In this document: positions 9,884-30,449 of the stretch, piece after piece | Layout of the letters: each line of letters begins with the position of its first letter | How positions within the stretch are numbered: the stretch's first letter is position 1 | Program-made: the position numbers and the translations under genes | The notes under the pieces: model-generated | Database searches by the model: none | What the model was told of the DNA's origin: nothing | The model's input: only the letters and a program-made list of their open reading frames with translations | Virus record (IMG/VR): IMGVR_UViG_3300028591_000179 | Location: 10,773 to 74,772 of that record | Reading direction: 5' to 3' (one strand) | DNA: 64,000 nt | Source: a virus | Lineage: Duplodnaviria; Caudoviricetes

Positions 9884-11828
9884 AATTTAATTCCTCCTTT
9901 AAATCTTCAAGAGTACATATTCTAACATTGGCTTTTCTTGCTTTTTCTATTTTGCTAGAAGTACCCATAATATCTTTTACTACTAAACAATTTACATTTT
10001 TATTCCATTTATCTGAAGCATTTCCTCCATTTTTATTAATATAATTTTCTAATGCTTTGTCACGAATACCAGAAAAACATATATTATATTTAGCACAAAC
10101 TGTTGATTCTATTTGATTTTTTGGATTTATAAATTCTATACCATAACTATGTAATTGCATATGAATTTTAGTCATATACCATAAATGTTCATATTCTAAA
10201 TATTGACTAATTCTAGACTCTCCAAATCCTTCAATATTTTCTAGTTTTTCTTTAGTCATTCCTTCTAAAGTATTATATTTATTCCAAACCAAATTTAATA
10301 CTCTTTCACCAATATCTGGGCCAAAACTACCACAAGCGGCGGCGAATTGTGTCTCTATAAAGGTACTTTTTTTGGCTTTTAAACTAGCTTCTATCTTTTT
10401 TCCATTCTCACCTATTAATTTTGTAATTTCACCTTCTGGAAGCTCATAAATACGGTATGGATGATCGTATAAATTTAAAAATTGACTAAAAGCATCATAT
10501 ATCTTTACACAGTTTCCATATCCTAATTGTTCAATATCAAGTTTTTCACCAAAATACTCTAAACGTCTTATACCCATTTCTCTAGCATATTCCGGAGTAT
10601 CATTTGACCAAATATATACTAGATCTACACCTTCTATTTTAGTTTGACATTTTGGTAAATTATAATTTTTAGATGGTATTAATACTTCTTCTAATTTTGG
10701 AATTACTAAACCGGCTCTTTTAAATTTAATTTTAGCACCGATACCACATTTTGTTTTAATTACATTTTCATAATTATGTGCTGTAATATTAGTAATTTTA
10801 GCACCAGCAACTTCTACTGGTTCAATTTCTAATACTGGAGTAAAAATACCCCAACGACTTATTTGCCAATTTATATTAGTAACAATAGATTCAGCTATAT
10901 TATCATGAATACCTAATTTAAATTTTCTACTACATTTTGGATTTATAGTTCCTCCAACAAATCCATCTTCAATATTATCTAATTGTGTAAGAATAATACC
11001 ATCTAACTCATAATCAGAAAATTTAAGTCTTGTTTTAACTAAATCAATCATATTTTCATCAGTTAATGTTTCGGCTGACATAACTTGATAAAAAGGTACT
11101 TTAAACCCTTCATTTTTTAAGAATTCAAATGCCTTTAATGTACCTTGATCTTTAGAAGTCCAATAAGCTACAAATTCTGTTTGTTCAAAAATATAAGGTT
11201 TAGTTTCTTTACTATTTAATGCTCCTGCTATAGTATTTCTACCATTTTTTTGTTTTTTGCCACTAACTTGCTCTAATAAATTTAATATTGTTGGTATTGC
11301 AATTTTTGGAAATAATAATTCACCTCTAATTATTATTTTATCTTTATAATTTATCTTTTTAGGAAATCCTACATTTTGAACATGTCTCATAATATCTTTA
11401 CCTTTGGTTCCATGTCCGCGTGTAGCAGCAATAGTTAACTCACCATTTTCATAAGTAAGAATTAATGAACATCCATCTAACTTATCTGAAATTAAAAATT
11501 GTTCATGACCCTTAATCCATTTTTCTAAATCACCTTCTTTTAATTCTTCCATACTACCCATTGGTATTTCATGAATAATATCTTGACCATAACCAGTATT
11601 ATCAGAGGTTAACTTAGTAAAAAATTCATCATTTGGCCATATTATTTTAGCTTTATTATAAATATTATCATAAAACCAATCGTCCACAACATTTGAATCA
11701 AAATTTTCTGGATAAAAATTTAAAGTGTTGGCTAAAATTTGCCAATCATTATCAGTTAAAATGTAAAGATCACCTTCTGAATACGCTTTATTACATTTTT
11801 TTAATAACTGTTTAAGTTTTTCATTCAT
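9870..11828 (-). CDS. ligA: NAD-dependent DNA ligase
   Basis: KLDG adenylation motif, ATRG.G..G.DI, IRGE, RN..AG, ELDGII, OB-fold WQISRWGIFTPV, C-terminal BRCT. Confidence 0.93.
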   Translation of the reverse strand: MNEKLKQLLKKCNKAYSEGDLYILTDNDWQILANTLNFYPENFDSNVVDDWFYDNIYNKAKIIWPNDEFFTKLTSDNTGYGQDIIHEIPMGSMEELKEGDLEKWIKGHEQFLISDKLDGCSLILTYENGELTIAATRGHGTKGKDIMRHVQNVGFPKKINYKDKIIIRGELLFPKIAIPTILNLLEQVSGKKQKNGRNTIAGALNSKETKPYIFEQTEFVAYWTSKDQGTLKAFEFLKNEGFKVPFYQVMSAETLTDENMIDLVKTRLKFSDYELDGIILTQLDNIEDGFVGGTINPKCSRKFKLGIHDNIAESIVTNINWQISRWGIFTPVLEIEPVEVAGAKITNITAHNYENVIKTKCGIGAKIKFKRAGLVIPKLEEVLIPSKNYNLPKCQTKIEGVDLVYIWSNDTPEYAREMGIRRLEYFGEKLDIEQLGYGNCVKIYDAFSQFLNLYDHPYRIYELPEGEITKLIGENGKKIEASLKAKKSTFIETQFAAACGSFGPDIGERVLNLVWNKYNTLEGMTKEKLENIEGFGESRISQYLEYEHLWYMTKIHMQLHSYGIEFINPKNQIESTVCAKYNICFSGIRDKALENYINKNGGNASDKWNKNVNCLVVKDIMGTSSKIEKARKANVRICTLEDLKEELNYGSR

Positions 11829-12136
11829 TAATAGCTCCTTTCTAAAAGATGTATAGTTTTACCAAATCTTTTGAGATGATCATCTCTCAAAGTAGTAATA
11901 TCCATTTGTTTAGATAATGCAACAATTGCATCAACCATATTTAAATAATAAACTATTTGATCCGAATCCGTTACAATATAACTTTGTTTAATAATAAAAA
12001 ACATTTTTGTTGAAAATTCATAATATAAACCAGAAGGTTTAGAATCTTTACGATTACTATCCTTTGTTAAAAACAATCCATCTAAAACCTTACCGTTTTC
12101 CATTCTATGAATTTTACGAATATACCATTTATCCAT
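11828..12136 (-). CDS. Hypothetical protein
   Basis: 102-aa ORF, first in the ligase operon. Confidence 0.55.
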   Translation of the reverse strand: MDKWYIRKIHRMENGKVLDGLFLTKDSNRKDSKPSGLYYEFSTKMFFIIKQSYIVTDSDQIVYYLNMVDAIVALSKQMDITTLRDDHLKRFGKTIHLLERSY

Positions 12137-16139: not shown

Positions 16140-16258
16140 TTTACTTTCCTATATTATACTTTTTATTATATTATGATATTACAATTTATATATAAGTAAA
16201 ACAAAATATTATGAAATTATCAAGTTCTAAATGATATTGATATTATAAGGAAAATAAA

Positions 16259-16525
16259 ATGTCTAGATTCAGTAAAATTGTTAAAGCAAAATTAAAAGAA
16301 GAACTAACCATAAATCCATTAGTACAGGAATTAAATACAATGCATGAAAAAATTGATCAGATGCAAGAAACAATAATTGAAAAATATTCCAGTGCTAATT
16401 TTGATAGAGAAAATCATAGAGCTGAGTATTATAATGAAGTAACTTCTGCATTATCAGATGCCAGATTAGCTATTTCTAGAGCAAGCGATTATTTAAATGC
16501 TTTAACTGAGGATGAAGTATTTTAA
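16259..16525 (+). CDS. Putative internal head protein with capsid-targeting-like leader
   Basis: MSRFSKIVKAKLKEE leader; AGTTCT at 16223. Confidence 0.5.
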   Translation: MSRFSKIVKAKLKEELTINPLVQELNTMHEKIDQMQETIIEKYSSANFDRENHRAEYYNEVTSALSDARLAISRASDYLNALTEDEVF

Positions 16526-16527
16526 AA

Positions 16528-16549
16528 AGGGACCAATTAACTGGTCCCT
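16528..16549. terminator. Bidirectional terminator
   Basis: agggacca/tggtccct stem between convergent genes. Confidence 0.75.
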
Positions 16550-16553
16550 CTAT

Positions 16554-17690
16554 TTAAACTGTTAAATTTTTTATCTTTATATTTTCTAACAAATCTGCAT
16601 ATTTAAATCTATATGTGTCATCTATTTTTATTAGTGTAGAATAAACTTGAGTTGCATTTTTTAATTTTTCATATATTACATTTGCACTTGTTATACCTTT
16701 ATCTCTATCTTTATATAATCTATTATATCTTAAGGCTATTTCTTTTTTATTAAGTGTAACAGTTGATATCTCTAAATTTTGTTCTTCTGCAAAAGATTTA
16801 AACACACCATATAAATCAATCATAAAATTAGAAACTTTATCTTTAGCTAAACTTAATTCTGTATTATATTGTATTTTTACTTTTTTATACAAAATATTTT
16901 TAATAGCCTGTAGATTTTTGCTTACATAAGAATAAAGTAATTTTTTACCAGTTGATAACATATTATATCTTTCCATTTCATTTAATCTTTCAAAAAGCAC
17001 TAATACAAACCATCTAGCTATATTAGTATTTATATTAAATTTTAATCTTTTAGATACTTCAGTTAACTTTGAAGTATTTTCAAGGTCTAGTTTAGTTAAT
17101 TTTTCTTTTTCTTTGTCATACTCTGTTTTAGTTAAAATATTTTTATTTAATTGCTCATCTAAAACTTTATATTTTATTGTATAAAGAGTACGCAAAAATT
17201 TAATATTTAAAGCATTTTTATAATCTTCTGTTAAGCTACTATTCATACACTCATCTATACTATTAAACTTAGTATAATTTTTAGATGTTGGTTTAATATT
17301 ATTTATTTTTAAATACTTATCTAAGCGTTCTTTTGCAATATTATAAAACTCATTAAATTGTTCTTGGTTTAAAACGTTAGAACAATAATAAAAAATTAAA
17401 TTTTTTATATCTCTTGAATACCTAAAATATAAATGATATATACACAATAAGTAATCAATTTTTTTAGTTTTTTCAATAGTAAATTCAATTAGTTGTTCAT
17501 TTTTTGGTTCTTCTGAATTTAAAACTGGTAATACCTCAAAACAAGTCTTTCTTACTTTTGTAAGCCTATTTACTTCATTTTGATTATAACTTTTTATAGT
17601 TTTAATATATGCATATAAATCAGAATATGAATAATTTTCTGGTTTAAACGCTTTAGTAATACAATTTATTTTCATTTTAAATCCTTTCAT
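16554..17690 (-). CDS. Hypothetical basic helical protein, possibly DNA-binding
   Basis: 378 aa, Lys-rich; no diagnostic motif. Confidence 0.55.
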   Translation of the reverse strand: MKGFKMKINCITKAFKPENYSYSDLYAYIKTIKSYNQNEVNRLTKVRKTCFEVLPVLNSEEPKNEQLIEFTIEKTKKIDYLLCIYHLYFRYSRDIKNLIFYYCSNVLNQEQFNEFYNIAKERLDKYLKINNIKPTSKNYTKFNSIDECMNSSLTEDYKNALNIKFLRTLYTIKYKVLDEQLNKNILTKTEYDKEKEKLTKLDLENTSKLTEVSKRLKFNINTNIARWFVLVLFERLNEMERYNMLSTGKKLLYSYVSKNLQAIKNILYKKVKIQYNTELSLAKDKVSNFMIDLYGVFKSFAEEQNLEISTVTLNKKEIALRYNRLYKDRDKGITSANVIYEKLKNATQVYSTLIKIDDTYRFKYADLLENIKIKNLTV

Positions 17691-17746
17691 TATAGATTAT
17701 GTATTACATATAACATATACTATTTATTATGTAAAGCCAAAAAAAA

Positions 17747-18343
17747 TTAATAACCTTTAAGCTTAGCTAATCCATATAATTCATTTATATCATTTATTTT
17801 AAACCAATACTTATTTCTATCCTTTTTTACAAAATCTAATTTATATGCTGTTTTTACAAAATTAATTACACTATTTATTACAAAAGAATCCATATTATAC
17901 ATAAGTAAACATATATAATTTTCTTTTATTTTATCATAATTTTTAGTATAATATAAATCATCAATATGCAAACGTCCAAACATTAACGGCGAAAATTTAT
18001 ATCTCTTAAATAAACTATCTTCAACAAAATCTTCTATAATATCTCGTAAACCCTCTTTAGTTATTTTACCTTTATTTATAAAATAATCATATAAATCACT
18101 TGGAATTAACCAATGAGCAGAATATTCTTTGAAATCTAAATATTCTAATTTTTTTACTAAAGGATTTTTTGTATTTTCTAATATACTTTTAGCATATCTA
18201 CTATCATTTCCTTTTTTATTCCAAATATATAATAAAAATTCTTTATCTCCTATCTCCTCTATATCTAATTGATATTTATTAGATATTTTAAATTCTTCTC
18301 TTACTCCATTTAAATACTTAATAAAATCTAAACGACTTATCAT
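17747..18343 (-). CDS. Hypothetical protein, C-terminal-motif family
   Basis: Ends YWFKINDINELYGLAKLKGY. Confidence 0.55.
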   Translation of the reverse strand: MISRLDFIKYLNGVREEFKISNKYQLDIEEIGDKEFLLYIWNKKGNDSRYAKSILENTKNPLVKKLEYLDFKEYSAHWLIPSDLYDYFINKGKITKEGLRDIIEDFVEDSLFKRYKFSPLMFGRLHIDDLYYTKNYDKIKENYICLLMYNMDSFVINSVINFVKTAYKLDFVKKDRNKYWFKINDINELYGLAKLKGY

Positions 18344-18361
18344 ATGAATTCTTTCAATAAA

Positions 18362-18742
18362 TTATTTTAAAGAATATGTTTTGTTTTCTAGATATTCTTT
18401 ATTAATATCAATTGCTTTCATTAAATACTCTATAATTTTATCAAGATATGTCGAATTAAATCTTTTACTTTTTAAAAACCTTCTTAACTCATTAAAATTA
18501 TTATTTAATTTATCAATACCAAATGTAGATTCTCCAATATACATAACTATACTATCATTTGCACAATAAGTTATATTTGAATGACGAATTTTTTTATTAG
18601 TTGGTTTATCACCAATATTAATATCCCATCTACCTGGATATACTTCTACTAATTCAATACCTTCTCTTTTATATACATTTTCATCATTAGTAATCACTAT
18701 AGATTCTAATACTTTTGGTATAATTATTTTTTTATTAGACAT
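18362..18742 (-). CDS. Hypothetical protein
   Basis: AAAGGA RBS. Confidence 0.55.
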   Translation of the reverse strand: MSNKKIIIPKVLESIVITNDENVYKREGIELVEVYPGRWDINIGDKPTNKKIRHSNITYCANDSIVMYIGESTFGIDKLNNNFNELRRFLKSKRFNSTYLDKIIEYLMKAIDINKEYLENKTYSLK

Positions 18743-18936
18743 TTTTAATTCCTTTCAAATTTATTTATATATTTAATATATACTATCTCAAGTAAAAAGT
18801 AAAACAATTATTTAGGGCTTTCAGTTTATTAAACAAAATTTCTTAAAAGTTCTAGTATGTATATTAATCTTTTATAAAAAAGAATATAAGAAAATAGTTA
18901 ATAATTTATTGAATAATTTATTTAAAAGATAAAAAA

Positions 18937-19596
18937 ATGACTTTACATATTGGTAATAATCTAGTAAAAATAAATCATAATAATACATATGCATCTTTAG
19001 TTAAAATACCATTTGTTCCTAGTATTCCAACTATGTTAGGTTCTCGTCTTGATAACAAAGCAACAGTTGTAGGTGTATTACAAGATCATGAAGGTAATGA
19101 TTATGTATTAGCTGTAGTAGATGCTGCTTATAGAAGTGGCTCACCAATACTTAGATCCCCAAAAGGTGCTTCAAGTTTACCTTGGCATAGACTTGAAAAA
19201 GACGCTTTAGCGGATCGTCATACAGGAAAATATTATACTGATGTTATAATAGCTGAAACATCCATAAATCAAAATGATGCAATCTATTTTGCCACAAATG
19301 CATGTAGTATCTTTTTAAAAAATATGGAATATAAATCTGTATTACCATCGTTATATGAATTAACATGTATATACGATAATAGAATTGAATTAGATAAACA
19401 TGATCCGACATTAAATGATTATCCAGAAAGATCCTTAACAAATTTTACATTTGGTAGTACGGGGTCTAGATCATCTACGGCAAGACAAAGTACTGGTCAA
19501 TATATGTGGATTAAGAATTCTGATGGAACAAATAATATACTTGAGTATAGACAAAGTAGTGGTGTGTGTCCTGTGTTTTGTATTCCATTATCATAA
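18937..19596 (+). CDS. Putative receptor-binding/tail protein with C-type-lectin-like (DUF1566-like) C-terminal domain
   Basis: Paralog of 62725-63576 (RLDNKATVVG...AVVDAAYR...LPSLYEL...GVCPVFCIP); late motif upstream. Confidence 0.55.
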   Translation: MTLHIGNNLVKINHNNTYASLVKIPFVPSIPTMLGSRLDNKATVVGVLQDHEGNDYVLAVVDAAYRSGSPILRSPKGASSLPWHRLEKDALADRHTGKYYTDVIIAETSINQNDAIYFATNACSIFLKNMEYKSVLPSLYELTCIYDNRIELDKHDPTLNDYPERSLTNFTFGSTGSRSSTARQSTGQYMWIKNSDGTNNILEYRQSSGVCPVFCIPLS

Positions 19597-19644
19597 AATT
19601 TAATTAGATAATTTTTATATATTTATTAAAACCTTGAAAGCCTT

Positions 19645-20364
19645 TTAATATTTATTTATACGTAACATTGCATTAGTTAAATTAATATCTTTTATTTTAT
19701 AAATACTTAAGTTTGAAAGTAAATTTGTATCTGTATATACTGTGTTATAAAAATCAATATTTAAATATTTTAATTTATTCTTTAATTCTCTTTTAAAACC
19801 TTTTAATTCATCTGAATTAAATGCAATATGAGTTGAATTTAAAGCGCCAAATATTCTTATTACACCCTTCATTCTTCCTTTAAAATAGTATATTAAATAA
19901 CTAACGATTTTAAAACTTAATTCAAATTGTTCAAATGCTTCATCTATATCTTGATCGGTAGATTTTTTAAGTATTTTATTTATATAACTTGGTTTTAAAC
20001 ATAAAAATCTATTATCATCTATTGTTTCTATTTTAAATCCTGATATATCACATTTATATTCTTTTAACCAAAATAAAATTTCTTTTGGTTTAGTAATCAT
20101 TTTTAAATTTACTTTATTATTTTCATTTATAGATTTATTACATAATGCACAAACTAGTCTATTATTAGATTCATTATTTTTATCATAGAATAATTGTAAG
20201 CAAGTAAGGTCATCAAAACCAAAATATTTATTTATTATATATATTAAAATAATTAGAGCCTTAAAACTCCAAGTTATCTTATTTTCATTTTTATTTTTAT
20301 TTGATTTTAAACAAGTGTGTAAATTACACCATGTATATTCATAACTATTATTCCAGTCTGACAT
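19645..20364 (-). CDS. Hypothetical protein, paralog of 26052-26747
   Basis: Shared ITKPKEILFWLKEYKCDISGF / ITNPQTILFWLTEYEIDTSGF and NAMLRI end. Confidence 0.65.
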   Translation of the reverse strand: MSDWNNSYEYTWCNLHTCLKSNKNKNENKITWSFKALIILIYIINKYFGFDDLTCLQLFYDKNNESNNRLVCALCNKSINENNKVNLKMITKPKEILFWLKEYKCDISGFKIETIDDNRFLCLKPSYINKILKKSTDQDIDEAFEQFELSFKIVSYLIYYFKGRMKGVIRIFGALNSTHIAFNSDELKGFKRELKNKLKYLNIDFYNTVYTDTNLLSNLSIYKIKDINLTNAMLRINKY

Positions 20365-20378
20365 TATATCATTCCCTA

Positions 20379-21020
20379 CTATTCATATACATATAATGGA
20401 CAAATACTATCAAAAGCATGTTTTTCAATTAATTTATTATTTCCCATTAATCTAAAAAATCCAGAATATACATCTGTCAAGTTATTTAAATTTAATGTTA
20501 AGCGTATACATACCCACTTTTTAGAAAAATATTTATATGGTAAATCTACTTTATCATATTCTTGATTTATATCTGGTTTTTTATCATATCTATGCGAATA
20601 ATCTATTATACATTTTACATTTATTAAATTATTCAAACCATAATCATTAATCATTTGTTTTAAATCTTTATATGCTTTCTTTACTTCTTTTATTTGATCT
20701 GATACCAAACCATCTAAGCTTGGAAAAATTAAATTATCACTAACACATAAATTATTTTTCTTATCATAAATTACACAATATGGTTCAAGACTAGGTCCTT
20801 TTTCCATTCCTGACCAAGTATTATATTCTTTATGAAAAGGAAAATTTGCATTAAGTAATCCATATAAATAAATCAAAATATTAAAAATTATATTTTCATT
20901 TTTAGATACTAAAGAATTTTCCTCAAAAGTATAATTATAAGAATCTTCAGATAAAAAAACTTCTCTAATATGTTTATTATTATGTATTTTATATCCACAA
21001 TTTTCAGTTTTGTTAAACAT
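20379..21020 (-). CDS. Hypothetical protein
   Basis: 213 aa; SGFFRLMGN resembles the family motif. Confidence 0.55.
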   Translation of the reverse strand: MFNKTENCGYKIHNNKHIREVFLSEDSYNYTFEENSLVSKNENIIFNILIYLYGLLNANFPFHKEYNTWSGMEKGPSLEPYCVIYDKKNNLCVSDNLIFPSLDGLVSDQIKEVKKAYKDLKQMINDYGLNNLINVKCIIDYSHRYDKKPDINQEYDKVDLPYKYFSKKWVCIRLTLNLNNLTDVYSGFFRLMGNNKLIEKHAFDSICPLYVYE

Positions 21021-21130
21021 TTATATATTCCTTTCATTAACTATAAATTTAATATAGCATTGAAATAAAACAAAGTAAAACCATTTAAAAGTTCTAATAG
21101 TTATATAAATTTTATTTAAGGATAGATACT

Positions 21131-21415
21131 ATGTCAAATAAATATAAAGAAGATTTTATAAAGAAGGTAAATAAATTATTAAGTGAAGGTGAAGATTATT
21201 CTTGGATGGATGATGACGATGAATTACCTCAAACAGAATATACTCCAAAACAAGAAGAAGCTATTGATATGTTTGATGAATATTTACAAAAATTAAATGA
21301 AGGTCTTATTTCAAGAAAAAATTTTGCTCAAATTGCTAGTGAATTATACAATAATTTACCAGAATATGATTATCTTAGAAGTAAAGATGCAAAATTACCA
21401 CAAAAGTATAATTAA
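21131..21415 (+). CDS. Small acidic putative internal head protein
   Basis: MSNKYKEDFIKKVNKLLSEGED leader; AGTTCT at 21090. Confidence 0.5.
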   Translation: MSNKYKEDFIKKVNKLLSEGEDYSWMDDDDELPQTEYTPKQEEAIDMFDEYLQKLNEGLISRKNFAQIASELYNNLPEYDYLRSKDAKLPQKYN

Positions 21416-21439
21416 AAAATAATATTTGGAATATTAAAA

Positions 21440-22549
21440 ATGGGTTTATTTGTTGGTCAAACTGAAGTAAGAATTAATCGTAATGATTCATATGGATCTT
21501 TAATAAAACCACAAAAAGTAATTGAAATTGAAAATTGGGTAAATTCTAAATTAGAAAGTAATGGCATTTTAGGTAATGATACAGAAGCATTATGGATTTC
21601 TGAGCATGACTATTTTGAAAATTATAACTTTTATGAATTAATGGATGAAAATCTTCAATATAATGTTTTTTATTTAGATACCTTAGAAACAAATAAAGAT
21701 ATACCAATTATTTTTTATACACCAAAACAAGTCCAACTAAATGAATTTGTTATTGCTGGAAATTCATTAGATGATAATAATTTAATTTTTGAAATATATG
21801 GAAGTAATGAACCTTTTGTAGCAGATTACGAACAAGATTTATCTATTGATTATTTTGCTTCTAATGATTCTTTATGGACAGAAATTAGTTTTAATAAGAT
21901 TGTTACAAATGAAAATGTTAAATTTACTTTTAATAATGAAAATTTTTATCATTATTATAAAATAGTAATTCGATTAAATGCATCAGTAGAAACTACATTT
22001 TCAGAATTTAGAATGACTGGTAATAATATAAAAATGCCTCCTACCCCTATGGAAATTTATTTAAGTAATCATGAAGTAAAAGAAATTAAAAATACTTCTG
22101 ATACAGCTACTTCATCAACAGAAGTAGTAGTATTTAATGCTTCTACCGGTGGAAAGGGTAATTTTAGTGGAGTATGTAGTAATTTAGTAAATTTAGAAAC
22201 ACTTATAATTAAAAAAGTTAGTGGTTCTGGTTGGAATCATTATCAAAATGCTTTTAATAATGATACAAAATTAAAAAATGTTATATTTAATGGCAGTATG
22301 ACTATGAGTGGGTCTGGACATTTAACTGGAATATTTAATGGATCAAATAATATAGAAAAAATTTATATAAATAAAAACTATAATCCTCCAGCAAATGTTA
22401 TGAATCAAATCTCTTCTAAAAATTGTATAGTATATACCGATTATACAAGTGAATCTGATAATTATATAAATACCTATTTTTCTGTAAATAAAATAGTTTA
22501 TAATTATTCTATAGATGATTTCTTTACATTATTAAATAATGAATTTTGA
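21440..22549 (+). CDS. Putative tail/receptor-binding protein with LRR (BspA-like) C-terminal repeats
   Basis: N-terminus similar to 18937 gene; NLVNLETLII...AFNNDTKLKNVIF...IFNGSNNIEKIYI repeats. Confidence 0.45.
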   Translation: MGLFVGQTEVRINRNDSYGSLIKPQKVIEIENWVNSKLESNGILGNDTEALWISEHDYFENYNFYELMDENLQYNVFYLDTLETNKDIPIIFYTPKQVQLNEFVIAGNSLDDNNLIFEIYGSNEPFVADYEQDLSIDYFASNDSLWTEISFNKIVTNENVKFTFNNENFYHYYKIVIRLNASVETTFSEFRMTGNNIKMPPTPMEIYLSNHEVKEIKNTSDTATSSTEVVVFNASTGGKGNFSGVCSNLVNLETLIIKKVSGSGWNHYQNAFNNDTKLKNVIFNGSMTMSGSGHLTGIFNGSNNIEKIYINKNYNPPANVMNQISSKNCIVYTDYTSESDNYINTYFSVNKIVYNYSIDDFFTLLNNEF

Positions 22550-22956
22550 TTTCTTTCTTTAACTTTATCATAATTTTTATCAAAATATTTATAATCATCA
22601 TTTTGCAAATCTCTATATTTGTAATTTTGATTTTTATCAAAATGATCACGATAAAAACCTTTAATCCTATTATGATCTGGATTAGTTCTTAAATCTTCTA
22701 TATAAGCTTGACTATCTTTTATTTTATTTAATAAATTTATAATTTTTTTATTTTCAGGATATTCATTTTTTATTGTTACAATTAAATAATAAGCCTTTCC
22801 TAAAAAACCTAAAGCTTTACTTAAATTTTCTTGTTCATTTTGGAGTTCTTCATTATCAATATCGTAATTTAAAGCTTGCATTCTACTAGGATTACCATCA
22901 TCTTCTTCTAATTTTTCACAAGCCTCTCTAAAAGCCTTTATATATTTATTAACCAT
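22504..22956 (-). CDS. Putative internal head protein (late, - strand)
   Basis: MVNKYIKAFREACEKLEED leader; AGTTCT on - at 22995-23000. Confidence 0.45.
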   Translation of the reverse strand: MVNKYIKAFREACEKLEEDDGNPSRMQALNYDIDNEELQNEQENLSKALGFLGKAYYLIVTIKNEYPENKKIINLLNKIKDSQAYIEDLRTNPDHNRIKGFYRDHFDKNQNYKYRDLQNDDYKYFDKNYDKVKERNQNSLFNNVKKSSIE

Positions 22957-23171
22957 TTAATGATTCCTTTTAAATTATTATTAATATGTTTATTAGAACT
23001 ATAAAAACTTTTAATTACCTGTTATATTTAGTATTCATATTTATATTCCCATTAACAATTCTAACTCTTTTACAAAAGAATACATTTATATACTTAATTC
23101 TACAAATAAAAATTACTAAAAATATTTAAAGTTCTTATGTATAATAATAAATATATCAATGAAAATAAAAA

Positions 23172-24014
23172 ATGTCAAAGTTTAAAAACATAATAGAAAA
23201 TATATTAAAAGAGCATAGCATCAATTTAAATGAGGATGCTAAAAAAGATTATGCTTTAATAAAAGAAGCAAAGGTTGTTTACAATATGTTTTTAAAAGAT
23301 TTACAAAAAAAGATGAAATATGTCTTAGAAGAATTAAAATCACAAGAAGATAGTGATTCTTGTGAAGTAAATGATTTAATTATTAAACTAAATATTTATG
23401 ATTATAACTCTACATGTGGTAGTTATGATCCTTTTATGAATAGTATTCAATTATCATTAAATTCACTTAAGAAAAAAACTAAATTAAAAAATGTAGAAAT
23501 AAATCCTGATACTGTTAATGAATCTATAATATATACTATTTTAAATTCTAATTTCACTAAAGAAGTTTTTTTACACGAATATCAACATTATAAACATAAC
23601 CAATACAGATATTCAAATCGAGATTATGAATCGATTAAATTTCCAAATAGTGATACTTATTATACTTATAGGCATGATGCTAATGAAAACAATTCTTATA
23701 CAATGGAAGATTTAAATAATATAATTAAACAATTTAAAAAAGAAATAAACAACAATTTATCTAAAAACAATATAAAGGATAAACTTAATTATTTTATATC
23801 CAATTTATATAATCAATATATTCATACTGATATAAATCCAAAAAAAGTACCATATGATTCAAAGTCATCAAATTTAAGTCAATTCTTCTTTACATATAAT
23901 AAAAAAAGATATATTAATCGAATTTATAATTTACTTTATTATTTATTTATAGAAGATAATATAACCAGAGCAAGAAAAATATATAATGAAATAAAAAAAG
24001 ATATATTAGAGTAA
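23172..24014 (+). CDS. Leader-bearing HEXXH (zincin-like) protein; paralog of 26940-27791
   Basis: MSKFKNIIENILKE leader; FLHEYQH motif; ENNSYTMEDLN. Confidence 0.6.
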   Translation: MSKFKNIIENILKEHSINLNEDAKKDYALIKEAKVVYNMFLKDLQKKMKYVLEELKSQEDSDSCEVNDLIIKLNIYDYNSTCGSYDPFMNSIQLSLNSLKKKTKLKNVEINPDTVNESIIYTILNSNFTKEVFLHEYQHYKHNQYRYSNRDYESIKFPNSDTYYTYRHDANENNSYTMEDLNNIIKQFKKEINNNLSKNNIKDKLNYFISNLYNQYIHTDINPKKVPYDSKSSNLSQFFFTYNKKRYINRIYNLLYYLFIEDNITRARKIYNEIKKDILE

Positions 24015-24021
24015 TAGATAA

Positions 24022-25407
24022 ATGTCAAGGTTTAGAAACATAGTAGAATCAATTATATATAATAGTAATATTTTATTTGAATCTGAGCAAAAAATAAATT
24101 GGATTTTGTCTCAACCTAAACTTGTCCAAGCTTTAGAAAATAGAATTCAAAATGATTCTAAAACTCCAAATAATATAACAGCTAAACAATTATTAAAAAA
24201 TTTTGATAATAGTTCAATTGTAATTGGAAAATTTTTGCCTTGGGTTGTAAAAATGTATTCTAATAATGAATTTGAATATACTGATTTAGGGTTAATAAAT
24301 AACTATCTCGGAAGCTTTGTAAAAAATTCAAACAAATTAGAAAAAAAAGATATAAATCAATATAAATCTTTAGAAGAATTAAATAATGCTTTAGAAAATA
24401 TAAAAGATGTTAAAGGATCTCGCGAAGTACAAAGAGATGCTAAATCTGGTGCAGAAAAAATTTATGAAGACAATAAATGGATTATACTTATCCCGCACAC
24501 TAAAGAAGCCGCAATACAATATGGTAAAAATACTAAATGGTGTACTGCAGGAATAAATAATAATATGTTTGACTATTATAATGAAGATGGACCTTTATAT
24601 ATTCTTATAAATAAGCAAAATCCTAATGAAAAATATCAGTTTCATTTTGAAACAAATCAATATAAAGATGTAGAAGATCGAGAAATAGATTTAAAATCTT
24701 TTTTAGAAGAAAATCCAGAAATAAAAATTTTTTTTGCATCTATTAAAAATCTTGATAAGACTGATATTAAAAATTGGATATGGCTTAATGGGACTAAATT
24801 AAATTATAATGATTACTTTGAAGAAGTTAAAAAACATGGTTTTGTATTAAAATATGTACCAGAAGAAGTAAAAGATTATAAAATGTGTTTAGAAGCTATT
24901 AAACAAGCTGGATATCGTTTAGAATTTGTACCAGAAAAATTAAAAGATTATAATATGTGTTTAATTGCAGTTAAAAGTAAGGCTACTGCATTAAAATATG
25001 TACCAGAAGAATTTAAAGATTATAAGTTATGTTTAGAAGCTGTTAAATCTGGAGGTTATATGTTAATAGATGTTCCAGAAGAATTTAAAGATTATAAGTT
25101 ATGTTTGACAGCTGTTAAATCTGATGGTTGTGCCATAGTAGATGTACCGGAGGAATTAAAAGATTATAATATGTATTTAGAAGCTGTTAAATCTGATGGC
25201 TATACATTAGAATGTATACCTGAAGAATTTAAAGATTATCAAATGTGTTTAGAAGCTGTTAAAAGTAAAGGTGAAGCATTAAAATATGTTCCAGAAGAAT
25301 TAAAAGATTATAGAATGTGTTTAACAGCAATTAAAAAAAATAATAGTGCATTAAATTATACATCAAAACAATTTAAAGAAAAACTTAAACAAAAAATCGG
25401 AATATAA
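24022..25407 (+). CDS. Leader-bearing protein with PcfJ-like core and DUF4116-type repeats
   Basis: MSRFRNIVESII leader; YGKNTKWCTA...GPLYILINK...KYQFHFE; seven 24-aa [VI]PE..KDY repeats. Confidence 0.65.
   Translation: MSRFRNIVESIIYNSNILFESEQKINWILSQPKLVQALENRIQNDSKTPNNITAKQLLKNFDNSSIVIGKFLPWVVKMYSNNEFEYTDLGLINNYLGSFVKNSNKLEKKDINQYKSLEELNNALENIKDVKGSREVQRDAKSGAEKIYEDNKWIILIPHTKEAAIQYGKNTKWCTAGINNNMFDYYNEDGPLYILINKQNPNEKYQFHFETNQYKDVEDREIDLKSFLEENPEIKIFFASIKNLDKTDIKNWIWLNGTKLNYNDYFEEVKKHGFVLKYVPEEVKDYKMCLEAIKQAGYRLEFVPEKLKDYNMCLIAVKSKATALKYVPEEFKDYKLCLEAVKSGGYMLIDVPEEFKDYKLCLTAVKSDGCAIVDVPEELKDYNMYLEAVKSDGYTLECIPEEFKDYQMCLEAVKSKGEALKYVPEELKDYRMCLTAIKKNNSALNYTSKQFKEKLKQKIGI
24830..25370 (+). 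repeat. Intragenic ~72-bp tandem repeats encoding DUF4116-like units
   Basis: Recurrent ccagaagaatttaaagattat-like units; boundaries approximate. Confidence 0.75.
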
Positions 25408-25409
25408 TA

Positions 25410-26045
25410 ATGTCTCAATTTAAAACTATTATAGAAAATATTTTAAAACAACATAATATTACTTTAACCGAAGCTAAAGTAATTAAAATATCTTTTGATG
25501 AATTGGGTAATGATTCTGGTTATAGTTATGAAGATATAATAACTTATAATATGCCACCATATTTACCGATATATAAAAATCCAACGCAATCTGAATTTTT
25601 TGATATTTATAATCATTCTATAGAAAAAGATATACGTGGATTAATTGTTAATGATGATATTTATATATGGGATAGTTATTGGGCATTACATAATAATATA
25701 TGGCAATTATTAAATATTGATCCAAATATAAATACTTGTGCTTTTTTGTATCATGATAATAAGTTAGAATTTGGTGATATATTAAATAAAGATGGTATGT
25801 ATATAAAAGATATAAACTTAGCTAAATCCATAATGCTTAATAATAAATGGTTTGTAGATACTTTTGGTAAAAATTTAATTAATAATGCCTTACCACATCA
25901 TACTTGGGAATTTGAAGAAGATACTATTAAACAAGGTAATTCTTGGGTAAATAAAGGAAAAGAAGGTACTCATGGTACCTTCAAAACTAAAAAACAAGCT
26001 GATACTCAAAGAAAGGCTATGTTTGCAAATGGATATAAAGGCTAA
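25410..26045 (+). CDS. Leader-bearing putative internal head protein with basic C-terminal module
   Basis: MSQFKTIIENILKQHNITLTEAK; ends WVNKGKEGTHGTFKTKKQADTQRKAMFANGYKG. Confidence 0.55.
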   Translation: MSQFKTIIENILKQHNITLTEAKVIKISFDELGNDSGYSYEDIITYNMPPYLPIYKNPTQSEFFDIYNHSIEKDIRGLIVNDDIYIWDSYWALHNNIWQLLNIDPNINTCAFLYHDNKLEFGDILNKDGMYIKDINLAKSIMLNNKWFVDTFGKNLINNALPHHTWEFEEDTIKQGNSWVNKGKEGTHGTFKTKKQADTQRKAMFANGYKG

Positions 26046-26051
26046 ATCATA

Positions 26052-26747
26052 TTAATTACCTGTTATACGTAACATTGCATTTGTTGTATTTATATCAGTT
26101 ATTTTAAAAATATAAATATCTTGACTATTAAGTCTTTCATCATAACCTTTAGAATAAAAATCAATATTAATATATTTAAATTTATTTTTTATCATTCTAA
26201 TATCATCTGCTGAATTATATACAATATAAATATTATTTGAATTACTATAAATTTGAAACGTAGAAAGAACTTTTTTATAAGTCATAAGTATATAATTCAT
26301 AAGTTTAGAAACTAATTCAAAATATTTAAAAGCATTTTCTATATCTGTATTAGTAACTTTATGTAATATTTCATTAATATATTTTGGTTTTAAATATAAA
26401 AAATCTTCACCATCTAATTGTTTAATTTCAAAACCAGATGTATCAATTTCATATTCGGTTAACCAAAATAAAATAGTTTGTGGATTAGTAATAACATTTA
26501 TTTTAAGATTACCATACTCATCTTCATATTCATCATAAAATTTACAAATAAAATCACAACAATTATTATCATATAGTAAAACTAAATTAGAATCTTTTAA
26601 ATATATATTTATTAGAGATGTTAAAAAATAAATAATTCTAATACTATCTCTTATATCATTATAATTATTATTAGATTTTATATAACTAGATTTAGAACGA
26701 CAGCTATATGTAAATTTATATTTATAATCATTATTCCATTTAGTCAT
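26052..26747 (-). CDS. Hypothetical protein, paralog of 19645-20364
   Basis: See paralog; ends NAMLRITGN. Confidence 0.65.
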   Translation of the reverse strand: MTKWNNDYKYKFTYSCRSKSSYIKSNNNYNDIRDSIRIIYFLTSLINIYLKDSNLVLLYDNNCCDFICKFYDEYEDEYGNLKINVITNPQTILFWLTEYEIDTSGFEIKQLDGEDFLYLKPKYINEILHKVTNTDIENAFKYFELVSKLMNYILMTYKKVLSTFQIYSNSNNIYIVYNSADDIRMIKNKFKYINIDFYSKGYDERLNSQDIYIFKITDINTTNAMLRITGN

Positions 26748-26939
26748 TTTAAATTCCTTTCTATTAATATATATAATAGCATATAAAAAGAAATAAAGTA
26801 AAGCTGTTTATTCATCTTTTCATTCTTGTAATAGAAATACTAAATAATAAAAGTCTACTAAATAAAATTCCTTAAAAGTTCTAATGTATATGTATATTTT
26901 ATCTTAAAAAACATAGTTAACATAATTCAAAAATAAAAA

Positions 26940-27791
26940 ATGTCAAAGTTTAGAAATATAGTAAAAAACATATTACAAGAAAATAATATTGTTATTAATG
27001 AAGATGCTAAAAACGATTATGCCTTAATAAAAGAAGCAGAAGTAGTTTATAATATGTTTTTAAATAAGATAAAACAAGATAGTGAATATGTAATTAATTG
27101 GTTAAATAAATATGGAGATGTAGTAATATTACCTCCTAATAATAATAATGAGTGTCCTTCTCTCAAAATATGTAGTTATAAAGGTCCTTCTGGCGAATTA
27201 GCTTTTTGTGATGAACTTGGTATAACTTTATATTTAGAAGGCTTATTATATAATAGTTGGTATAAAAAATATTTCTTAAATCATAATGTAACAATAGATA
27301 TTTTATTAAAAGCTCTTAAATTACCTCAAATTAAATCTTCTTTTTTACACGAATATCAACATTTTAAATATCATACAACAGATAAAACTAAAGATTTACC
27401 ATATAAAGTAAATTGGAAAAAAGATTACAATAAATATAGACTAAATCATAATGAAAATAATTCTTTTACTATGGAAGATTTAAATCATTTAATAACAGAT
27501 TTTAAATTTGAATTAAAACATAAAAATATTGATCTAAATAATAAAAAAGAAGTATTAAACTATTTATCTCAATATATACAAAATTTATATGCTCTTATTG
27601 GAATGAAATCAGCATACGATGGACATAGAATAACAAATTTATCAGAACAACCTATGTATACAAAAGATACACATATGGAAAAACAATACTATAAACGTAT
27701 ATACAATATATTATATTATTTATTTGTAGAAGATAACATAAATAAAGCAAGACAAATATATAATCAAATAAAAAAAGATATGCAAGGGTAA
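26940..27791 (+). CDS. Leader-bearing HEXXH protein; paralog of 23172-24014
   Basis: MSKFRNIVKNILQE leader; FLHEYQH; near-identical 5' DNA to paralog. Confidence 0.6.
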   Translation: MSKFRNIVKNILQENNIVINEDAKNDYALIKEAEVVYNMFLNKIKQDSEYVINWLNKYGDVVILPPNNNNECPSLKICSYKGPSGELAFCDELGITLYLEGLLYNSWYKKYFLNHNVTIDILLKALKLPQIKSSFLHEYQHFKYHTTDKTKDLPYKVNWKKDYNKYRLNHNENNSFTMEDLNHLITDFKFELKHKNIDLNNKKEVLNYLSQYIQNLYALIGMKSAYDGHRITNLSEQPMYTKDTHMEKQYYKRIYNILYYLFVEDNINKARQIYNQIKKDMQG

Positions 27792-27800
27792 TAATAACTA

Positions 27801-28472
27801 ATGAGTATATTTAGAAGTATAGTAGAAAATATATTACAAGAAATGACTTACCCAAGTAATTTTGATTTACAATATTTTTCAACTATTCCTACATTTAAAG
27901 ATCGTATTAAATATTGTAAAGACAGATTAAAACTTATTGGAAACGGTACATCACGTATAGCATTCCAAGTTGATGACAAAAAAGTACTTAAAATTGCAAA
28001 AAACTCAAAAGGGATTGCACAAAATATAAAAGAAGAAGATTGGGGTAGAAATCAATATGGTTGCTTTGCTAAAATATATGAAGCTGATACAAATAATCAT
28101 ACATGGATAGAAATGGAATTAGCAAGTAAAGTAACTTTTAAAAACTTTATTGAACATTTTGGATTATCTGCAAAATCTTTATTACCTGTATTTGAATATG
28201 TATATAATACCTACACTGATATAAATAAAAATAATAAACTTCCAGAAAAAGAACAAATAGAAGAATTTTTAAAAAACAATATATATAATAAGAAAAATAA
28301 AGAATTATATAATCTTTACCAATATATATTAGATTACCAACCAGATAAATTAACTATAAAAGATTGGTGTCGATCAGATAATTGGGGTAAAGTAAATAGA
28401 AATGGTAAAGAATACTATGTTATTATAGATGATGGATTTGATGAAGATATATGGAATAAATATTATGCTTAA
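27801..28472 (+). CDS. Leader-bearing protein-kinase-like protein
   Basis: IGNGTSRIAF Gly-loop, VLKIAK Lys, QNIKEE helix-C Glu, DWCRSDNWG catalytic-loop-like, VIIDDGF DFG-like. Confidence 0.7.
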   Translation: MSIFRSIVENILQEMTYPSNFDLQYFSTIPTFKDRIKYCKDRLKLIGNGTSRIAFQVDDKKVLKIAKNSKGIAQNIKEEDWGRNQYGCFAKIYEADTNNHTWIEMELASKVTFKNFIEHFGLSAKSLLPVFEYVYNTYTDINKNNKLPEKEQIEEFLKNNIYNKKNKELYNLYQYILDYQPDKLTIKDWCRSDNWGKVNRNGKEYYVIIDDGFDEDIWNKYYA

Positions 28473-28766: not shown

Positions 28767-30380
28767 ATGTCTATTATGAGAAGAATTGAAAATAACGGTC
28801 TAGTAGAAAAAACTCGTAGCGAAAAAATTGCAAACGGTATTTCTCATGCTGCTAACGTATTACACGAGTCTACTTTAGGTCGTCGTTGCCCTAACTTATT
28901 AAAGGGTATTGAATCAGAAAGCAAAGAAGCACGTTATCAAGCTGCTACTATGGTTCAACTTATCGAAAACATGGCTGAAAAATATGCTAAAGAACAAGGC
29001 GTACAAATCTTACACGAAGATACAGCTGGTACTGCAGGTCCTGCTACTACTGCTGCTACGGCTATGTTGACTCCTGGCGTATCAACTTTAACTCCGCAAG
29101 TAGTTGATATTGTTAATGTTTTCTATCCGCAAATGGTTTCTAATTACATTGCAGATATTCAAGCATTAGATCGTCAGTCTGGTATGATTTTCACCATTAA
29201 GACACGTTACAGTCAAGATGCTGCTGATGTTGAAGCTGGTGACATTGTATTTGAAAAGCCTACTGATGGTACATATACTTCTGAAATGTTGGCATATAAT
29301 CCTGATAAAACAACGATTGAAGAAGATGCTGATAAGAAAGTATACAAAGTACATGCTGAATTGAATAGTGCTTTACCTGAAGATGCAACAGTAAAAGTAC
29401 GTGCTGGTTCGTTTATTGTTCGTGTTGATGGTAAAGAAATTGCACGTGACTATGGTAATGGTTCTGCTAATTTGGATGGTACACAGAAGAAAGCAGAAGA
29501 TGTATATGGTAAGTACAATGTAATTGGTCGTGGTGTATCTGGTACAGTTGATGCTGGTTCTGGTGTTGCTGAATTAGAATTAGATGCTAGTATGTATGCT
29601 GAAGCTGTTGAATTTGGTACATTTACGTTTGAAGCTGCTGTTGATACTGAGACTGATGTTGATTTGATTCGTAAGATTCAGTTCGATATTCCTGCTCAAC
29701 CAGTATTAGCAAAAGAACACCCGTTAATGAGTTCTTACAGTGTTGCATCTTCTTTGATTATGAATGCACACTTAGCAATTGATACTGATGAATTAATTGC
29801 TAACCAAATTGCTGGTACGATTCGTTGGGAACGTGACTTGTTATTGATTCAATCTGTTTATGCTGCTGCTGCTTCTAAGCTTGATTTAACATTTGATTGT
29901 TCTGCAAATGGTGCTAACTTAACATTACAACAAAGATATAGTGCATATACAACAACGATTAGTACAGCTCGTGGTATTATTCAAGAGGTTGCTGGTCGTG
30001 GTACTGTTGAATTTATGATTGTAAGTGCTAAGCAAGGTTTAACAATCGTTGAAAATATTGAAGGCTTTAAGGCTGCTCCTGAAGCTAAGAAACCGATTGG
30101 TCCGTATTTAGCTGGTACATTACGTGAAGGTACAATTGCTGTTATTGCTGTTCCGTATACTAAGACATTACCGAGTGATCAAGTTGTATTTGGTTTCAAA
30201 GGATTCCAACTTGGTGATTCTGCTATTGTTTTGGCTGAATGGATTCCGTTGTACTTCACACCTACTTTCCAAGCTCCGAACTTAAAGAATCATAAAGGTG
30301 CTATGTCTTTCTATGATTTGTTCATGAATAAGCCGGAATACTTGGTTAAAGGTGCTATTGCTAACTTTAACAATGCCTAA
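28767..30380 (+). CDS. gp23: Major capsid protein, T4 gp23-like
   Basis: Q(A)L...SG.IF.I..RY segment; AKEHPLMSSYS...D.D..IA..I..EI-like block aligns with gp23; high-expression codon bias; strong terminator; LHE sites as likely maturation cuts. Confidence 0.88.
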   Translation: MSIMRRIENNGLVEKTRSEKIANGISHAANVLHESTLGRRCPNLLKGIESESKEARYQAATMVQLIENMAEKYAKEQGVQILHEDTAGTAGPATTAATAMLTPGVSTLTPQVVDIVNVFYPQMVSNYIADIQALDRQSGMIFTIKTRYSQDAADVEAGDIVFEKPTDGTYTSEMLAYNPDKTTIEEDADKKVYKVHAELNSALPEDATVKVRAGSFIVRVDGKEIARDYGNGSANLDGTQKKAEDVYGKYNVIGRGVSGTVDAGSGVAELELDASMYAEAVEFGTFTFEAAVDTETDVDLIRKIQFDIPAQPVLAKEHPLMSSYSVASSLIMNAHLAIDTDELIANQIAGTIRWERDLLLIQSVYAAAASKLDLTFDCSANGANLTLQQRYSAYTTTISTARGIIQEVAGRGTVEFMIVSAKQGLTIVENIEGFKAAPEAKKPIGPYLAGTLREGTIAVIAVPYTKTLPSDQVVFGFKGFQLGDSAIVLAEWIPLYFTPTFQAPNLKNHKGAMSFYDLFMNKPEYLVKGAIANFNNA

Positions 30381-30414
30381 TTAAAATTTAGTGTATTAAG
30401 TATAAGCATTAAAA

Positions 30415-30449
30415 AATCCCCTCGGAGGAAATTCGGGGGGATTCTTTTT
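30415..30449 (+). terminator. Intrinsic terminator after major capsid gene (probably bidirectional)
   Basis: aatcccctcgga/ttcgggggatt stem flanked by A and T runs. Confidence 0.9.

Follow-up and report, generated by a model that had tools for sequence, protein, structure and literature searches.

A shared N-terminal leader on unrelated proteins of an uncultured giant phage clade: a probable propeptide for capsid targeting and processing

In bacteriophage T4, the internal proteins form a diverse set with only a capsid targeting sequence (CTS) in common (PMC9026906, PMC3012670); targeting depends on residues 4 and 7 of the CTS, and processing on residues 8 and 10 (PMC9026906). T4 IPII and IPIII, as read from NC_000866, start with M-K-T-Y-Q-E-F-I-A-E/A (the slash marks the junction), and in IPI this start is extended by a spacer that ends in I-T-E/A. 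In the phiKZ-like giant phages (phiKZ, 201phi2-1, and SPN3US), several inner-head proteins are cleaved by a gp21-like protease behind the Glu of an A/S/G-x-E motif, and most propeptides are longer than 100 residues; the identical N-termini of the diverged paralogs gp53 and gp54 of SPN3US were interpreted as CTS-like (PMC5694885). Here, a short leader shared by eight genes was analyzed in a 64,000-nucleotide stretch of viral DNA (the window), which comprises bases 10773-74772 of a 74.8 kb record of IMG/VR (IMGVR_UViG_3300028591_000179; G000). The record has a CheckV completeness of 31%, and its genome is very AT-rich, with a GC content of 20-35%. Three IMG/VR relatives were compared with it: G001 (237 kb) and G002 (227 kb), both nearly complete, and G003, a 62.6 kb record. 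The leader occurs in two types, and, judged from sequence, both are probably propeptides like the T4 CTS, serving in capsid (prohead) targeting and in processing. The capsid proteins of the relatives were 68-76% identical to that of the window phage, and since two of these relatives are nearly complete genomes of ~230 kb, the source is an uncultured giant phage clade.

A sequence-only reading of the window had listed eight genes with related N-termini. All eight open reading frames (ORFs) were present with these N-termini, and each contained an [LI]-x-E motif inside the first 21 residues. The type-1 leader was found on six genes, named here by their first base (16259, 23172, 24022, 25410, 26940, and 27801). 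All six N-termini started with M-S-x-F-[KRS]-x-I-[IV], and the 14-residue consensus was M-S-[KR]-F-[RK]-x-I-V-E-N-[IA]-L-x-E, with conservation ending at residue 14. The type-2 leader, M-x-N-K-Y-I-x-x-F-R-E-x-x-x-K-L-x-E, was found on 21131 and on 22956 of the minus strand, and on three more proteins of G002. The grouping of the two types is defensible because they have the core K-F-R...L-x-E in common and because type 2 swaps for type 1 on the same cargo elsewhere. A hidden Markov model (HMM) of 14 residues, built from 17 N-termini of the four genomes, was searched against all six stop-to-stop frames of the 74.8 kb record, G001, and G002, a scan that had been proposed as a check of the leader. 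It gave 15 matches at E <= 3e-4, all of them on the initiator Met of ORFs with at least 88 amino acids (aa), and the next match had an E of 0.18; significant matches were confined to protein N-termini. The shared leader is real, far beyond chance. In all four genomes, the leader genes were located within ~8 kb of the capsid gene. A degenerate DNA pattern for the leader matched four stretches in a viral collection and four in a metagenome collection, which added two phage contigs that carry leader genes (L059 and L064); the others were one internal chance match present in both collections (L060 and L062) and two short matches outside ORFs. The leader was amphipathic, with the hydrophobic positions 4, 7, 8, 11, and 12 on one face of a helix and a mean hydrophobic moment of 0.51 versus 0.29 for other N-termini. 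AlphaFold placed it in a separate helix of low confidence; in the model of the 27801 protein, this helix covered residues 3-16 and was of lower confidence than the rest.

The leaders were followed by folded cargos of 74-447 aa. The 88-aa protein of 16259 (16259-16525, plus strand) had a divergent type-1 leader (codons 1-14, ending L-K-E; HMM E 1e-4) on an acidic helical cargo with an isoelectric point (pI) of 4.4, for which the family search gave no match. The two type-2 leaders were on a 94-aa protein (21131-21415, plus), where the leader ended in L-S-E, and on a 150-aa protein (22504-22956, minus), where it ended in L-E-E. The type-1 leader of the 280-aa protein of 23172 (23172-24014, plus; the first gene of its operon) had a spacer ending in L-N-E at residue 21, and that of the 283-aa protein of 26940 (26940-27791, plus) a spacer ending in I-N-E at the same residue. 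These two proteins had been described as paralogs, and they were 40% identical over 273 aa. Both carried a HExxH cargo, and in the family alignment H137, E138, H141, and E172 were invariant, so that they may be zinc metallopeptidases. The earlier HEXXH label stood for the motif but found no counterpart in the fold, since the AlphaFold model of 26940 (predicted local distance difference test (pLDDT) 72.5) had no Foldseek match at E <= 0.001 and VIA-align returned only generic helical matches with Z <= 6.4. The 461-aa protein of 24022 (24022-25407, plus) consisted of a type-1 leader ending in L-F-E at residue 20, an N-domain widespread in phages, and DUF4116 repeats, and its 513 homologs had variable leaders. 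It had been labeled PcfJ/DUF4116; the DUF4116 part was solid (Pfam 7.3e-43), whereas PcfJ was only a lead. The 223-aa protein of 27801 (27801-28472, plus), with a type-1 leader ending in L-Q-E at residue 14, had been called kinase-like. The AlphaFold model (pLDDT 90.6) agreed with this name: Foldseek matched it to APH(2'') kinases and ULK1 with a probability of 1.0 and an E of 5e-5, at a template modeling (TM) score of only ~0.4, and G49, R52, K64, E78, D188, and D210 were invariant or nearly so in the family. A two-lobed protein-kinase-like fold, with a Gly-rich loop, a conserved Lys, and Asp residues for catalysis and metal binding, is thus predicted and supported for this cargo.

The remaining type-1 protein, of 211 aa (25410-26045, plus), had a leader ending in L-T-E at residue 21, a cargo of family B, and a C-terminal module of 43 aa. 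This module (25914-26045) was 93% identical to the one in a G002 protein (G002:C1 49051-49725) that had a type-2 leader and a body otherwise unrelated to that of the 25410 protein, and it was also C-terminal in a HExxH homolog (P0050). It is a second shuffled module, at the C-terminus.

When the 17 leader proteins of the four genomes were compared beyond residue 22, ~12 unrelated cargo families were obtained, with some true paralogs in two pairs or triplets. Leader cargos of G001 matched DUF3293 and, with 29.3 bits at a cut-off of 28, the S-adenosylmethionine (S-AdoMet) lyase family; a PDB sequence search with the S-AdoMet-lyase-like cargo gave no match. S-AdoMet lyase is an anti-restriction type of activity. 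To follow the leader/cargo junction, wider homolog sets of four cargo families were examined. In the kinase-like family, close homologs had type-1 leaders and distant homologs quite different ones, and all of the leaders ended in [LI]-x-E right before a conserved M-A-Y-P. The HExxH family had type-1, shortened type-1, and type-2 leaders, all ending at an invariant E/D-A (E21-D22-A23). Leaders of 14, 18, and 21 residues were found in family C, and all ended in L-x-E before G-D-[KQ]-K. Among the 513 homologs of the PcfJ-like family, 72 had a recognizable cargo anchor. A hydrophobic-x-Glu was located 0-6 residues from the anchor in all 61 of the 61 with an N-terminal extension of at least 8 aa, and the other 11 of the 72 were leaderless and started at the junction point itself. 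In one homolog (P0053), an ortholog of the 23172 protein was fused to an ortholog of the 25410 cargo through a retained L-T-E/A joint. This conservation of the junction despite changing leaders is the strongest sequence evidence for the proposed processing site.

The same motif was present in the capsid protein. The major capsid protein of the T4 gp23 family was encoded at 28767-30380 on the plus strand (Pfam Gp23 1.4e-21, match from residue 105); it was 23% identical to T4 gp23, and its mature domain began near residue 100. Two LHE sites had been noticed in it, and both were present, as V-L-H-E/S at residue 34 and I-L-H-E/D at residue 84. The L and E of these sites (residues 32-34 and 82-84) were invariant in six orthologs, and the site at residue 84 was followed by a variable linker and then by the conserved gp23 domain. 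T4 gp23 has L-T-E at residue 65 (NC_000866). The capsid gene (28767-30443 region) stood apart from other structural genes: its neighbors were leader genes in one direction and, in the other, non-structural genes of the minus strand. The window encoded a phosphoesterase, a DNA ligase, and proteins with DUF2201 and DUF2828 on its minus strand.

A gp21-like protease had been proposed to be encoded elsewhere in the genome, and it was found in the three relatives but not in the 74.8 kb record, which was searched with Peptidase_S77 and by tblastn with the proteases of the relatives. G001, G002, and G003 each encoded a protein of 820-1000 aa whose first ~260 residues matched head maturation proteases (phrog_207, 1.7e-17), with a weak Pfam S77 match of 17-19 bits, below the cut-off. 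The domain was 21-27% identical to T4 gp21 with an N-terminal L-L-I-E in common, and a PDB sequence search with it gave no match. The protease (L041:8863-11868, minus, with the protease domain at 11059-11868; L009:1342-3408; L011) was fused to an extension of ~750 aa, which had Gly/Ala-rich stretches, acidic stretches, and a Cys-x-x-Cys pair whose placement differed between genomes. The long extension is probably the scaffold.

The motif AGTTCT had been reported in front of the leader genes or their clusters, and this was borne out. The promoter-like motif AGTTCTA was located 36-63 nt upstream of 16259 (at 16223-16229, plus, 36 nt), 21131 (at 21090), 22956 (at 22994-23000, minus), and 26940 (at 26877-26883, plus, 63 nt), and the variant AGTTCTT preceded 23172 (at 23130). 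The other three leader genes (24022, 25410, and 27801) were downstream in the same operons. As a correction to the earlier reading, no AGTTCT motif was found directly in front of the capsid gene. On the plus strand from 26877, no terminator-like site was found until a strong intrinsic-terminator-like hairpin past the capsid gene (30415-30443, plus), which closes the transcription unit of 26940, 27801, and the capsid gene; as far as these signals indicate, the two leader genes may be co-transcribed with the capsid gene. AGTTCTA was intergenic in 12 of 15 occurrences in G000, 25 of 32 in G001, and 40 of 59 in G002, 30-70 nt before start codons. In G001, it preceded the genes for the tail sheath (phrog_23, 5.5e-68), the protease (phrog_207), and a baseplate wedge subunit (phrog_261).

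From these sequences we infer docking, cleavage, packaging, ejection, and effector roles in the following order. The tagged proteins would be made late, alongside the head proteins, and the leader helix would dock them onto the scaffolding core, probably onto the long C-terminal extension of the protease in this clade. The gp21-type prohead protease would then cut where leader and cargo meet, behind the Glu of [LI]-x-E, and the same rule would mature the capsid protein. The freed cargos, namely the kinase-like enzyme, the two HExxH proteins, and the PcfJ-like/DUF4116 protein, as well as S-AdoMet-lyase-like proteins in relatives, would remain in the head and would probably enter the host together with the DNA. 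Injection and an effector function would go a further step beyond a targeting and processing propeptide.

Several observations weigh against this interpretation. The protease gene was not found in the 31%-complete record of the window phage itself. The extension of the relatives' protease showed no enrichment of [LI]-x-E (0.013-0.020 versus a background of 0.0136), and the motif is common in this proteome, at 0.0136 per residue. One leader protein of G001 had no [LI]-x-E in its first 40 residues, and the junction motif could in part lie in the first helix of the cargo domain instead of marking a cleavage site. The pI of the cargos was 4.1-8.9, so that they are not basic as T4 internal proteins are. 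No AGTTCTA could be recognized at the G001 operon of the two S-AdoMet-lyase-like leader genes, and these genes therefore may not be late. The best capsid match among cultured phages was only 37% identical, and the clade has no cultured relative. A leader-like stretch was internal in one G002 protein, at residue 187 of 366 aa (G002:C1 143454-144554, minus; L023:997-2097). The N-terminal half of that protein was homologous to a leaderless G001 gene (23005-23583) in an operon of two leader genes, and the protein may be a fusion or a cargo polyprotein.

The leader might instead stay uncleaved and serve as a docking helix for another late partner; a membrane site, an assembly chaperone, and the tail or baseplate are examples of what it could bind. 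The hydrophobic-x-Glu would then be kept for helix or domain packing. The amphipathic character of the leader would fit such a helix, the junction residues of distant homologs formed one conserved block with the first cargo residues, and one leader gene of G001 was located inside a tail/baseplate gene cluster. However, this would leave unexplained why leaderless homologs start exactly past the junction, why the junction stays fixed while the length and type of the leader vary, and why the same motif recurs at the capsid propeptide boundary and at the N-terminus of the gp21-like protease. We regard an uncleaved docking helix as unlikely.

It is highly improbable that a modifying enzyme recognizes the shared N-terminus, as happens with the leaders of ribosomally synthesized and post-translationally modified peptides (RiPPs). 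Relatives had many radical-SAM genes: about 14 formed a block in G001 (G001:C1 74000-98000; L037-L038), with 15 Pfam matches in all, and five matches were found at G002:C1 185900-188800. G001 had eight leader genes, and G002, with its fewer matches, had fewer. In contrast, the 74.8 kb record had eight leader genes and no radical-SAM match, the G001 block was at least 18 kb from every leader gene, and the folded cargos are not short core peptides. A RiPP-like tag was rejected for this absence of linkage between radical-SAM genes and leader genes.

The common 5' end could also be a recombination or translation-initiation cassette, conserved as DNA or RNA and encoding a peptide without a function in itself. 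Leaders and cargos were indeed shuffled between phages, as seen in the swap of type 1 and type 2, the moves of the C-terminal module, and the fusion of two cargos in one homolog. The codons decided against it. The invariant Ser2 was encoded by TCA, TCT, and AGT and thus alternated between the unconnected codon families TCN and AGT, three codons each were used for I7, V8, and L12, and the 40 nt upstream of the leader genes were not conserved. Since conserved residues had varied codons and the upstream DNA was unconserved, the conserved element is the peptide, and selection acts on it and not on RNA or DNA. An element at the RNA or DNA level was rejected by this analysis and can hardly be the explanation. 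Finally, an ordinary paralogous family whose N-terminal helix happened to evolve slowest would fit the truly paralogous pairs or triplets of cargos, but it has next to no likelihood, as the kinase-like fold, the DUF4116 repeats, the HExxH protein, and the S-AdoMet lyase family are without common ancestry and cargo homologs in other phages have other leaders or none.

The targeting and processing propeptide is therefore the reading that we carry forward. The sequence-only reading had also proposed a T4-like leader cut after [LI]-x-E. This proposal is now favored by the modular N-terminal position of the leader and its invariant junction, by selection on its amino acid sequence, by the motif in the capsid protein, by the protease found in the relatives, and by a promoter motif common with structural genes; the cut itself is a probable event. 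Its effector arsenal would be helped by the S-AdoMet-lyase-like cargos of a relative and weakened by the lack of the late motif at those two genes. Its proposal that this phage has a targeting code of its own was too narrow, since the clade has two leader types and other phages have a third on cargos of the same families. This third type, M-[KR]-x-I-x-L-T-E-x-Q-F..L-x-E, was found on PcfJ-like and kinase-like cargos. No related loci were found for one such protein (P0129) when they were sought. In an unrelated phage (IMGVR_UViG_3300028805_002075, GC content 36%; L067:2252-11871), three neighboring genes for proteins of 405, 795, and 511 aa had the third type, with N-termini M-[KR]-x-I-x-[LF]-[NT]-E-[ND]... 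A T4-type large terminase adjoined them, and the product of a neighboring gene was SprT-like (HExxH) with an N-terminal helix of its own.

Because the third leader occurred on two cargo families, three genes with it were clustered in that unrelated phage, and the P0053 fusion retained its L-T-E/A joint, a general rule for large T4-type and giant phages can tentatively be considered, at somewhat less than even chances. Each lineage would have its own head-loading leader ending in hydrophobic-x-Glu, which would co-evolve with the scaffold and the protease, and a common pool of cargos (PcfJ-like, kinase-like, HExxH/SprT-like, and S-AdoMet-lyase-like) would swap leaders at the junction. If this rule is true, the packaged and injected proteome of uncultured phages would be readable from sequence alone.

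Two further pairs of genes were observed among the leader genes. Paralogous genes of 239 and 231 aa (19645-20364 and 26052-26747, both minus; similarity judged by eye) were interleaved with them. The proteins of 18937-19596 and 21440-22549 (plus) had an N-terminus of ~25 aa in common, M-x-L-x-[IV]-G...[IV]-N-[HR]-N-x-[ST]-Y-[AG]-S-L-[IV]-K, which was different from the leaders and was followed by unrelated bodies, and one of the two genes was behind AGTTCTA. Their shared N-terminus is possibly a virion-attachment anchor of fiber-like proteins.

If the tag loads proteins into the head, the clade would deliver ready-made kinase-like and HExxH proteins, and in relatives S-AdoMet-lyase-like proteins, at infection, and the repertoire of injected phage proteins would be widened well past the small basic inhibitors of T4. 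With the conserved junction of leader and cargo, candidates for packaged proteins can be listed from sequence alone for uncultured phages, and the exchange of cargo modules can be studied. Like the T4 CTS, the tag could be used to package proteins.

The closest likeness of the leader is to the T4 CTS, which is removed by gp21 from IPI, IPII, IPIII, and Alt. In both systems, a short N-terminal propeptide (10-19 aa in T4 and 14-21 aa here) is found on otherwise unrelated proteins, starting with M, with an aromatic residue at position 4 and hydrophobic residues at positions 7 and 8, and ending in [LI]-x-Glu here and I-x-E in T4. The length of the leader is variable, with a core and a spacer as in T4 IPI; the gp23-type capsid protein has a propeptide that bears the same motif, the gp21-type protease of the relatives has an N-terminal L-L-I-E, and the set of cargos varies between relatives. 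Unlike in T4, the leader cannot be aligned to the CTS beyond this pattern, the peptide being too short for a homology test, and two leader types occur within one clade. Most of the cargos are folded and enzyme-like, with 200-460 aa, and they are not basic; the protease is fused to its ~750-aa extension, whereas T4 pairs the protease with a separate gp22 scaffold. The leader genes cluster beside an isolated capsid gene. Compared with the phiKZ-like phages, the propeptides here are short and T4-like with L or I at P3, and the capsid protein is gp23-like by Pfam. A likeness of proposed purpose, the presence of enzymes at DNA entry, links the leader proteins to DarA and DarB of P1 and to the S-AdoMet lyase of T3, the family matched by the cargo of a relative. 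The Dar proteins are packaged and injected anti-restriction proteins, which are not known to have a common cleavable tag of this kind, and the T3 lyase is expressed early and not packaged; a packaged S-AdoMet lyase, hypothetical here, would be new. The system as a whole would vary the T4 principle and not establish a new one: it would occur in a new clade, with two interchangeable leader types and enzyme-like cargos.

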